Origin: a virus | Virus record (IMG/VR): IMGVR_UViG_3300045988_175028 | DNA length: 64,000 bases | Strand: one strand, 5' to 3' | The notes under the pieces: model-generated | What the model was told of the DNA's origin: nothing | The model's input: only the letters and a program-made list of their open reading frames with translations | Database searches by the model: none | Shown: positions 43,223-43,358 of the stretch, one piece after another | How the letters are laid out: each line of letters opens with the position of its first letter | Position numbering within the stretch: the first letter of the stretch is position 1 | Program-made: the position numbers and the translations under genes

Positions 43223-43358
43223 GCGTCTTTAGCTCAGCGGGAGAGCAGTAGCCTTTGGGGAAGTAATTCAATTGGAAGAAAACGCGAATGCAAGTTCGAA
43301 TCTTGCCTTCTCCACCATAAGCTATTGGTCGCGAGTTCAAATCTCGCAAGACGCACCA
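43223..43358 (+). tRNA. tRNA-Lys(UUU) interrupted inside the anticodon by a 61-nt insert
   Basis: GCGTCTT/AAGACGC acceptor, GTAGC/GCTAT anticodon stem, loop CTTT|insert|TAA, A73-CCA. Confidence 0.75.
43257..43317 (+). ncRNA. tRNA-shaped insert 3: anticodon-arm-less, Ala-type acceptor (G3:U70, A73, CCA)
   Basis: GGGGAAG/CTTCTCC acceptor, T arm GCAAG-TTCGAAT-CTTGC, only about 24 nt between acceptor and T arm. Confidence 0.6.

Follow-up and report, generated by a model that had tools for sequence, protein, structure and literature searches.

To our knowledge, the only tRNA introns thought to exist in bacteria and their viruses are self-splicing ones. Here, group I introns have been described in the anticodon loops of bacterial and phage tRNAs, for example tRNA-Leu(UAA), where these mobile, polymorphic elements occupy several positions, some of them in the anticodon itself (Williams 2020, bioRxiv 10.1101/2020.01.27.920355). 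Group I introns possess a conserved P3-P9 core and are typically longer than 200 nt. This is in contrast to the phage inserts described below, which are 50-72 nt long, coreless and without a ribozyme match in Rfam.

The tRNA introns of Archaea and Eukarya (Sen/EndA, Trl1) represent a second point of comparison. In the route proposed below the phage introns would likewise be spliced by proteins, with the exon halves held by the tRNA body. Trl1 combines ligase, kinase and phosphodiesterase; its ligase domain belongs to the Rnl1 type, and genes for an Rnl1, a kinase and a phosphoesterase are present in the phage. In contrast, archaeal and eukaryal introns are set by a bulge-helix-bulge or by the distance from the tRNA body and mostly lie between bases 37 and 38, whereas the boundaries of the phage introns are set by their own tRNA-like ends. 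In a bulge-helix-bulge, a helix of 4 bp lies between two bulges of 3 nt each at the splice sites, the canonical site being 37/38. We know of no EndA in bacteria.

Elements shaped like a tRNA are also known to direct the cleavage of longer RNAs. The mascRNA of MALAT1, mitochondrial 'tRNA punctuation' and the stable RNAs of the T4 tRNA cluster have in common that a tRNA-shaped element sets the RNase P and RNase Z sites in a longer transcript. These elements separate or terminate transcripts, and we know of none that is present inside another tRNA or whose flanks are rejoined. The tRNA-like domain of tmRNA and the alanine minihelix resemble the phage insert in having an acceptor stem and a T arm and no anticodon arm, and the copy in the tRNA-Lys gene carries G3:U70, A73 and CCA. 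Unlike tmRNA, the insert is devoid of an mRNA-like domain and of pseudoknots, and G3:U70 is missing in 31 of the 33 family members among the matches listed. Regarding ligation, the PrrC/Pnkp/Rnl1 system of phage T4 is similar, since it uses the same ligase family and a kinase on the same target, the anticodon loop of tRNA-Lys(UUU). However, in T4 the break is inflicted by the host at 33/34, whereas here it would be programmed by the intron of the gene itself, and the phosphatase partner is an HD domain instead of the HAD type of T4.

The closest described system stems from the Lak megaphages, whose tRNAs 'contain enigmatic introns' that are present in some and absent from other closely related genomes and recur unchanged across cohorts (Devoto et al. 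2019, Nat Microbiol, PMC6784885). For the Lak Thr(TGT) intron it was stated that it 'itself may encode a tRNA', and tRNA introns of phages were previously unreported according to these authors (Devoto et al. 2019, PMC6784885). The Lak introns (Table S6, PMC6784885) are 79-114 nt long and consist of a 5' hairpin UACAG...CUG, a linker and a tRNA-like unit, which stops at N73 plus 0-2 nt and carries no CCA. Their insertion site is 36/37, also in G34 tRNAs (Tyr, Phe), and the Lak tRNAs lack an encoded CCA (PMC6784885). A full-text literature search returned this report as the sole relevant account, and no removal mechanism is published there (PMC6784885).

The introns analyzed here resemble those of Lak in their location in the anticodon loop of phage tRNAs, in the polymorphism of their presence or absence and in the tRNA-like unit inside. 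In contrast, those of the window start directly at N1 of the module, without the 5' UACAG hairpin and linker, and end with CCA or CAA. This bare-module type occurs at 34/35 to 36/37, solely in U34 tRNAs, and is found in gut phages of about 118 kb as well as in many other viral contigs. The Lak-type architecture was found in two loci of our collection (L087 and L109). The bare-module introns are a new variant of the barely described Lak-type tRNA introns.

The window, which is the whole stretch of 64,000 nucleotides that was analyzed, belongs to an AT-rich phage genome (36% G+C) encoding Pol III alpha, gyrase, DnaB, PhoH, ClpP and baseplate proteins. Its tRNA array is interspersed with ROOL and RAGATH-33 RNAs, and a sub-threshold match to twister-P1 lies in the same neighborhood. 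Homing endonucleases are plentiful in the genome. Three of the 14 tRNAs in the window are missed by a standard bacterial-mode search. The features discussed below are listed in the table.

Table. Split tRNA genes, the class C intron and candidate RNA repair genes in the window.
Feature	Position	Strand	Characteristics
tRNA-Ile(UAU), split after base 34	40863..41011	+	72-nt class A module 40898-40969, T loop GGCAGGA, G73-CCA
tRNA-Thr(UGU), split after base 35	41147..41286	+	65-nt class B module 41181-41245, A73-CAA; Rfam tRNA 37.1 bits
tRNA-Lys(UUU) 5' exon	43223..43256	+	Acceptor 5' strand, D arm, anticodon stem 5' strand, loop C32 U33 U34 U35
Class C tRNA-shaped intron, 61 nt	43257..43317	+	Rfam tRNA 38.5 bits
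tRNA-Lys(UUU) 3' exon	43318..43358	+	U36 A37 A38, anticodon stem 3' strand, variable loop, T arm, acceptor 3' strand, A73, CCA
Polynucleotide kinase (P-loop) fused to HD phosphohydrolase; candidate end-healing enzyme	52196..53119	+	Pfam AAA_33 2.3e-23, HD 4.3e-4
T4-type RNA ligase 1 (Rnl1); candidate exon-sealing enzyme	53445..54563	+	Pfam RNA_lig_T4_1 (PF09511) 3.4e-15

A first-pass annotation of the window had described the region 43223-43358 as a tRNA-Lys(UUU) gene interrupted by a tRNA-like module without an anticodon arm. Its coordinates and all segments quoted in it match the window sequence exactly, and both parts of the description hold. The 5' exon reads GCGTCTT-TA-GCTC-AGCGGGA-GAGC-A-GTAGC-CTTT and the 3' exon TAA-GCTAT-TGGTC-GCGAG-TTCAAAT-CTCGC-AAGACGC-A-CCA. 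Removal of the insert yields GTAGC-CTTTTAA-GCTAT, in which the loop of 7 nt has U33 and a purine at position 37. The insert, as read from the sequence, splits tRNA-Lys(UUU) between bases 35 and 36. The spliced outer gene folds into a cloverleaf and is accepted by ARAGORN, which passes over the split gene in its default mode and calls it in intron mode.

The insert itself has the layout GGGGAAG, U8 A9, a 3-bp D stem with the loop AATTGGAA, a 9-nt connector, GCAAG-TTCGAAT-CTTGC, CTTCTCC, A73 and CCA. Thus, it displays a 7-bp acceptor stem including G3.U70, a canonical T arm and a D loop (AATTGGAA) that carries A14, G18, G19 and A21. It does not have the four arms of a tRNA, since the connector substitutes for the anticodon arm plus the variable loop. 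Against the Rfam tRNA model (RF00005) it nevertheless scores well above the gathering score of 29, by deletion of the anticodon arm. The end-to-end match to the tmRNA model reaches 24.9 bits (gathering score 47), with the ends of the model alone aligned; ARAGORN found no tmRNA, and the 61-nt insert does not qualify as one. No ribozyme family, group I introns included, matched the 61 nt in Rfam even at E <= 5. Furthermore, the splice sites do not form a bulge-helix-bulge, since a 7-bp helix directly adjoins the 5' site and ends 4 nt ahead of the 3' site. The folding energies (z = -2.4 for the precursor and -1.3 for the intron) are unremarkable taken alone. As this thermodynamic support is weak, the analysis relies on comparative evidence.

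The first-pass annotation had treated the Lys insert as a lone oddity. This did not hold, since the insert belongs to a family with two further cases in the same window, the sister genes for tRNA-Ile and tRNA-Thr, both of whose introns carry U3-A70. To collect relatives, PhoH was used as an anchor, by which 25 viral loci and 45 metagenome loci were fetched. The close relatives of the window come from human-gut assemblies, and the PhoH-anchored loci contain six classes of inserts, A to F, in tRNA genes for Ile(UAU), Thr(UGU), Lys(UUU) and in a Glu-like one. In addition, a generic pattern (inner T loop, 12 bases, C-C/A-A, 15-18 bases, outer T loop) matched more than 119 stretches in IMG/VR. The pattern matches listed, together with the PhoH loci, comprise 70 nested modules, which are distributed over 47 loci on viral contigs from the human gut and elsewhere. 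Of these modules 34 are distinct, with lengths ranging from 50 to 72 nt. Among the matches listed, the host genes are tRNAs for Lys, Ile, Thr, Pro(UGG), Gly(UCC), Glu, Gln and Leu(UAA) and a tRNA with the anticodon UAG, and the contigs bearing them are unrelated and of about 50 to 250 kb.

For bacteria and archaea the picture is different: 185,579 species genomes gave 120 pattern loci and a single nested module, which was found in a Paludibacteraceae MAG from feces. The contig that bears it, of 165 kb, is probably a phage. Cultured phages were covered by a blastn search of the Lys region and two other split genes against 50,697 GenBank phage records, which returned ordinary tRNAs or nothing and thus revealed no close relative. 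No free-standing module outside an anticodon loop was found in the window or in the PhoH loci (about 1 Mb of related DNA). A structural scanner applied to shuffled windows gave 0-2 weak matches each, whereas the convincing real ones all lie within anticodon loops. The three cases in the window and their recurrence in independent assemblies, compared with these few weak matches per shuffled window, place the tRNA-shaped inserts far beyond chance. For these searches the structural scanner and ARAGORN were used; a covariance model of all classes was dropped, because MAFFT mis-aligned the 5' strand of class C. Taken together, these tRNA-shaped tRNA introns form a widespread, phage-specific family.

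The host tRNAs share one further property. All 33 modules among the matches listed (about 19 classes) interrupt a tRNA with U34, compared to 51% of the 225 intact tRNAs of the same loci (P about 3e-6). This strict U34 rule falls outside what the RNase P/Rnl1 route proposed below accounts for.

The exact ends of the introns deserve attention, since the assignment as Lys(UUU) hinges on the end point of the intron. All loci, i.e., those fetched via PhoH and the pattern matches listed, were subjected to a structural scan followed by a strict check. Here, for 33 of the 34 distinct modules, excision from N1 to N73 plus three nucleotides recreates an anticodon stem of 5 bp together with a loop of 7 nt that has U33 and, at position 37, a purine. 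Tails of other lengths perform poorly: 1, 5 and 7 bases fit two, two and one modules, respectively, and 0, 2, 4 or 6 bases fit none. The modules end with N73 plus CCA, CAA or CCG, and although the insertion site shifts between 34/35, 35/36 and 36/37, the boundaries stay tied to the module. This N1 to N76 rule fixes the reading as Lys(UUU). For the sister introns it is established by intron-free alleles. The empty site of the Ile gene reads CTT/ATAA in such alleles (L001, L019), whose exons are 100% identical to those of split genes, and for Thr and Lys intact counterparts are present at the corresponding place in other genomes.

ARAGORN sets its own boundaries, by which the Lys gene becomes Gln(UUG) and the split genes in general receive Gln, Pro, Lys or Arg anticodons. 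In class A, the base that it reads as part of the anticodon changes from U to C exactly where its partner changes from A to G, which identifies the two as pair 1-72 of the insert. The Gln(UUG), Pro(UGG) and Arg(UCU) readings were ruled out by this covariation (U1-A72 to C1-G72) and by the intron-free junctions. A similarity search with the spliced sequence matched annotated tRNA-Arg as well as tRNA-Lys and is therefore uninformative on the isotype.

The first-pass annotation had put an alanine identity at the center of the element. The nucleotides are indeed present in the 61-nt insert: G43259 pairs with T43311 as G3:U70, next to G1-C72 and G2-C71, and A73 and CCA follow. According to the minihelix rule, G3:U70 with A73-CCA should allow AlaRS to charge an acceptor helix, so that charging of the freed 61-mer is possible by analogy. 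As the point of the element, however, the alanine identity does not survive the comparison. Among the matches listed, pair 3-70 of 33 modules is U-A in 23, G-C in five, G.U in two, A-U in two and C-G in one; besides the Lys intron, the L138/L211 type has G3:U70. N73 is A in 23 of these 33 listed modules, G in seven, U in two and C in one. What is kept across the family is the 7-bp acceptor stem, the 5-bp T stem, N73 and the 3-nt tail, whereas the identity nucleotides vary. With G.U at 3-70 in only two of 33 modules, the alanine identity appears incidental.

Within the clade of the window, most loci hold each of the three tRNAs once, split or intact at the syntenic place, and never in both forms; the exceptions are L002, L003 and L009. 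In a few clade loci the Thr(UGU) or Lys(UUU) gene is absent or present in two copies. The six variants of class A differ in ten columns, seven of them within the two helices, and 100% of the cells remain paired. Compensatory changes on both sides occurred at three pairs (1-72, 6-67 and 50-64). Class B shows an alternation of G.U and G-C at pair 1-72 and a D-hairpin pair changing from G-C to A-U. In class A, one of 74 exon sites is variable compared to ten of 72 intron sites (Fisher p = 0.004). Judged from these substitution patterns, the intron helices are under selection and the exons are kept intact. Furthermore, the identical 61-nt intron is present in a second Lys gene, although the exons of the two genes are only 67% identical (51/76 positions), which implies a transfer from gene to gene without an intron-borne ORF. 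Free-standing HNH genes related to the one at 44105-44602 recur in intron-bearing arrays. Genes of this type might mobilize the introns, but in most relatives of the window the introns are present without one.

Downstream of the split tRNAs, by 9-10 kb, the phage encodes a kinase-HD protein and, two genes further, an Rnl1. The former belongs to phrog_505 (polynucleotide kinase), and its kinase domain matches that of Pnkp from C. thermocellum (4GP7, 6.9e-18). The ligase matches phrog_562 (7.5e-45) and T4 Rnl1 (2C5U, 1e-8), whose lysine motif KEDGSL aligns with KIDGSL of the phage protein. Sequence and profile matches thus reveal the Rnl1 fold, the lysine motif and the P-loop 5'-kinase of a T4-type repair pair, and this pair renders plausible a link of the locus to breakage and repair of the anticodon loop. 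The ORF between kinase and ligase (53120-53464) codes for a small acidic protein without a match. A splicing endonuclease was not detected with Pfam, PHROGs and NCBIfam among the at least ten neighboring ORFs without known function.

Rnl1 and the kinase are present in all close relatives of the window, whereas in a sister clade (about 61% PhoH identity) no introns and, within 20 kb, no Rnl1 were found. A wider search with the ligase as query returned the same clade only. Among unrelated intron-bearing phages, L077 encodes an RNA ligase (phrog_968, 6e-60) and L138 the same kinase-HD protein, each adjoining the split tRNA. However, both repair genes are also present in L002 and L009, whose sampled tRNA arrays are intron-free. 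Since Rnl1 and kinase are in addition common anti-defence genes, their co-occurrence with the introns is weak evidence.

How such an intron might be removed is suggested by its ends. It shows both signals that mark the ends of any tRNA, and this points to cutting by proteins and not to self-removal. In the route that we propose, host RNase P would cut at intron nucleotide 1 and leave a 3'-OH on the 5' exon, and a tRNA 3'-end endonuclease (RNase Z/BN-like or other) would cut after the CCA of the intron and leave a 5'-phosphate on the 3' exon. The body of the outer tRNA would keep the two halves together. An anticodon loop nicked to give a 3'-OH and a 5'-phosphate is the natural substrate of T4 RNA ligase 1, which suggests Rnl1 as the sealer of the nick, with the kinase-HD protein at hand if the ends require healing. 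Excision would release the intron as a short tRNA-like RNA ending with CCA. That the 61-nt segment is such a protein-spliced intron of a functional tRNA-Lys(UUU), with cuts by RNase P and a 3'-end nuclease and sealing by Rnl1, is the reading we prefer, and we place its chance a little short of even. A broader claim would be that of a third mode of tRNA splicing, a 'tRNA-punctuated' intron, in which end-maturation enzymes cut, the repair ligase of the phage rejoins and a CCA-ended mini-tRNA is freed that may be alanine-chargeable in some copies including that of Lys; this we regard as tentative and rather doubtful as a whole.

Several observations bear on the two cuts. The modules contain the features recognized by RNase P and RNase Z, namely the 12-bp acceptor/T stack, N73 and CCA, and boundaries that follow the module while the insertion site moves are expected if tRNA-end enzymes cut. 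Near modules ending with CCA, the tRNA genes encode CCA in 346 of 379 cases, whereas in two phages with introns ending at N73 plus two nucleotides this applies to 0 of 12 and two of 15 neighboring tRNA genes. The tail of the intron therefore tracks the CCA status of the phage tRNA genes, which supports the 3'-nuclease half of the route. On the other hand, B. subtilis RNase Z is inhibited by CCA, and for a cut exactly after an encoded CCA we know of no enzyme established in the likely hosts, but only of RNase Z from T. maritima and RNase BN from E. coli. The 5' half is not transferable to Lak-type introns, since their hairpin precedes the module, so that RNase P cutting at N1 cannot create the Lak 5' splice site.

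The ends left by RNase P and RNase Z need neither kinase nor phosphatase. This leaves the kinase-HD protein without a task and keeps alive an alternative in which a dedicated transesterifying endonuclease of host or phage cuts, kinase-HD heals and Rnl1 seals, analogous to Sen/Trl1 of yeast. Kinase, HD phosphoesterase and Rnl1 ligase are exactly the three heal-and-seal activities and lie in one cluster, the kinase-HD protein adjoins a split tRNA also in the unrelated phage L138, and such an enzyme would fit the Lak-type introns as well, in which the 5' site lies away from N1 of the module. Nevertheless, the profile searches of the neighboring ORFs (Pfam, PHROGs, NCBIfam) offered no candidate for the endonuclease, and the N1 and N76 boundaries as well as the match of tail and CCA status point to ordinary tRNA end maturation, so that we consider this alternative unlikely. 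Both routes rely on proteins, and the splicing pathway of the class is probably protein-based. A miniature self-splicing or self-cleaving ribozyme would be the opposite case. Structured RNAs do occur nearby, RAGATH-33 and the sub-threshold twister-P1 match among them, but modules of 50-72 nt that match no ribozyme family are far from the more than 200 nt required by group I introns, and between the classes only the tRNA-like helices are conserved and not the sequence. Such an activity is therefore highly improbable.

It is also conceivable that no splicing takes place and that a selfish tRNA-derived insertion inactivates the gene, the phage using the tRNAs of the host; perhaps a CCA-ended RNA was ligated into a broken loop and then copied into DNA. 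This would suit a unit that corresponds to a mature tRNA-like RNA from N1 to CCA, its variable presence among near-identical phages, its identical occurrence in two divergent Lys genes and the abundance of homing endonucleases. An inactivated gene would however not be expected to vary less than its insert (1/74 compared to 10/72 sites) and to always yield a perfect cloverleaf. The split gene is the sole copy of that tRNA in the array. Compensatory evolution of the intron helices also argues against inactivation, and a reverse transcriptase was not found in the window. We judge an inactivating insertion to be quite unlikely. Finally, the actual product of the locus might be the released module, in the form of a stable mini-tRNA with a CCA end, which is charged (here with alanine) or acts as a decoy of the acceptor end, with the outer tRNA serving mainly as a scaffold. 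The 61-nt module has kept a canonical T loop as well as U8, A14, G18 G19, A21, A73 and CCA, selection acts on its structure, G3:U70 occurs here and in the L138/L211 type, and the tRNA-like domain of tmRNA gives a sub-threshold match. Yet the identity elements vary (G.U at 3-70 in two of 33 modules among the matches listed, N73 being A, G, U or C), T loops unlike those of tRNAs, e.g., GGCAGGA, occur in half of the classes, and the absence of a free-standing copy from about 1 Mb of related DNA is odd for an independently useful RNA. For a main role as product the chance thus appears slim, although it is compatible with splicing and not an exclusive alternative to the RNase P/Rnl1 route.

If the preferred reading is true, a short protein-dependent intron that is defined by tRNA mimicry would represent a new splicing logic, and the RNA ligase and kinase of the phage would gain a routine job in constitutive splicing beyond the mending of host-inflicted damage. 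The family of bare modules could also account for the 'enigmatic' introns of the Lak phages. The placement within the anticodon, solely in U34 tRNAs, hints at a link to anticodon-targeting defence or to U34 modification. With 136 nt the element is small and directly amenable to in vitro work. Since tRNA finders in bacterial mode miss split genes, the tRNA repertoires of phages (Lys, Ile, Thr, Pro, Gly, Glu, Gln and Leu with U34) are under-counted.

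Throughout the loci bearing a nested module, that is, a tRNA-shaped insert lacking an anticodon arm (e.g., L077, L085, L090, L124, L136, L160, and L181), every interrupted tRNA carries U34 and the insertion site always lies directly 3' of base 34, 35 or 36. For comparison, U34 is present in just 51% of the intact tRNAs of these same loci. In the window, the split genes for tRNA-Lys, tRNA-Ile-UAU and tRNA-Thr-UGU were all overlooked by default tRNA finders.

The Glu-like tRNA of locus L034 would read CCUUCAA in its loop after splicing, with C33 replacing U33. Since an intact Glu(UUC) gene is present in the same locus, this module-bearing copy may be decaying.

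A second intron architecture, which resembles that of the Lak megaphages (Devoto et al., 2019), was found in L087 (about 10040-10135) and L109 (about 4245-4340). Here, a 5' hairpin starting with UACAG is followed by a linker and the tRNA-like module, and the intron ends two bases beyond the discriminator of the module (N73+2). The adjacent tRNA genes of both phages lack an encoded CCA.

The search pattern of two T loops often matches a different arrangement, namely a complete tRNA gene immediately adjoined by a tRNA 3' fragment consisting of the T arm, the acceptor 3' strand and CCA. This arrangement is represented by L078, L114-L116, L122 and L155 as well as by many of the bacterial loci L195-L314.

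Features of the window and of locus L034
Feature	Locus	Position	Detail
Split tRNA-Ile-UAU	window	40863-41011	72-nt tRNA-shaped insert
Split tRNA-Thr-UGU	window	41147-41286	65-nt tRNA-shaped insert
Glu-like tRNA	L034	530-661	57-nt module
"Leu(CAA)" tRNA	window	44005-44082	no long variable arm
Thr(GGU) tRNA	window	45008-45077	70 nt, no encoded CCA
HNH endonuclease ORF	window	44105-44602	
Free-standing acceptor/T-arm minihelix	window	44601-44637	ACCA at end
ROOL RNA	window	46579-47173	302 bits
RAGATH-33 RNA	window	44650-44762	139 bits
Twister-P1-like match	window	43741-43829	sub-threshold, 43 bits (gathering score 67)
Long inter-tRNA stretch without ORF	window	41287-41480	
Long inter-tRNA stretch without ORF	window	42436-42740	
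Long inter-tRNA stretch without ORF	window	44763-45007	
Long inter-tRNA stretch without ORF	window	45326-45872	
Long inter-tRNA stretch without ORF	window	45948-46337	
Protein with N-terminal domain of major tropism determinant (Mtd)	window	56206-57447	

Two tRNAs of the window are unusual: "Leu(CAA)", which is kept in all relatives, and Thr(GGU), which lacks the CCA that almost all remaining tRNAs of the window encode. ROOL, RAGATH-33 and the twister-P1-like match all lie within the tRNA array. The long ORF-free stretches gave no match to Rfam and may represent additional structured RNAs; within the one starting at 42436 lies a tRNA-like segment (TCCTC...GAGGA) whose anticodon loop is unusual.

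Homologues of the HNH endonuclease occur repeatedly in tRNA arrays with nested modules of unrelated phages (L085, L086, L138, L181, and others), and none was found in the close relatives of the window. The stop codon of the window's own HNH ORF directly adjoins the minihelix. Further homing endonuclease ORFs are present in the regions 9825-19350, 19495-20199 and 33186-33914. DNA polymerase III alpha is encoded by two ORFs with a LAGLIDADG ORF (15885-16742) between them, a second LAGLIDADG ORF (11742-12569) adjoins ribonucleotide reductase, and two GIY-YIG ORFs were identified. This genome harbors many homing endonucleases and perhaps many introns or inteins, too.
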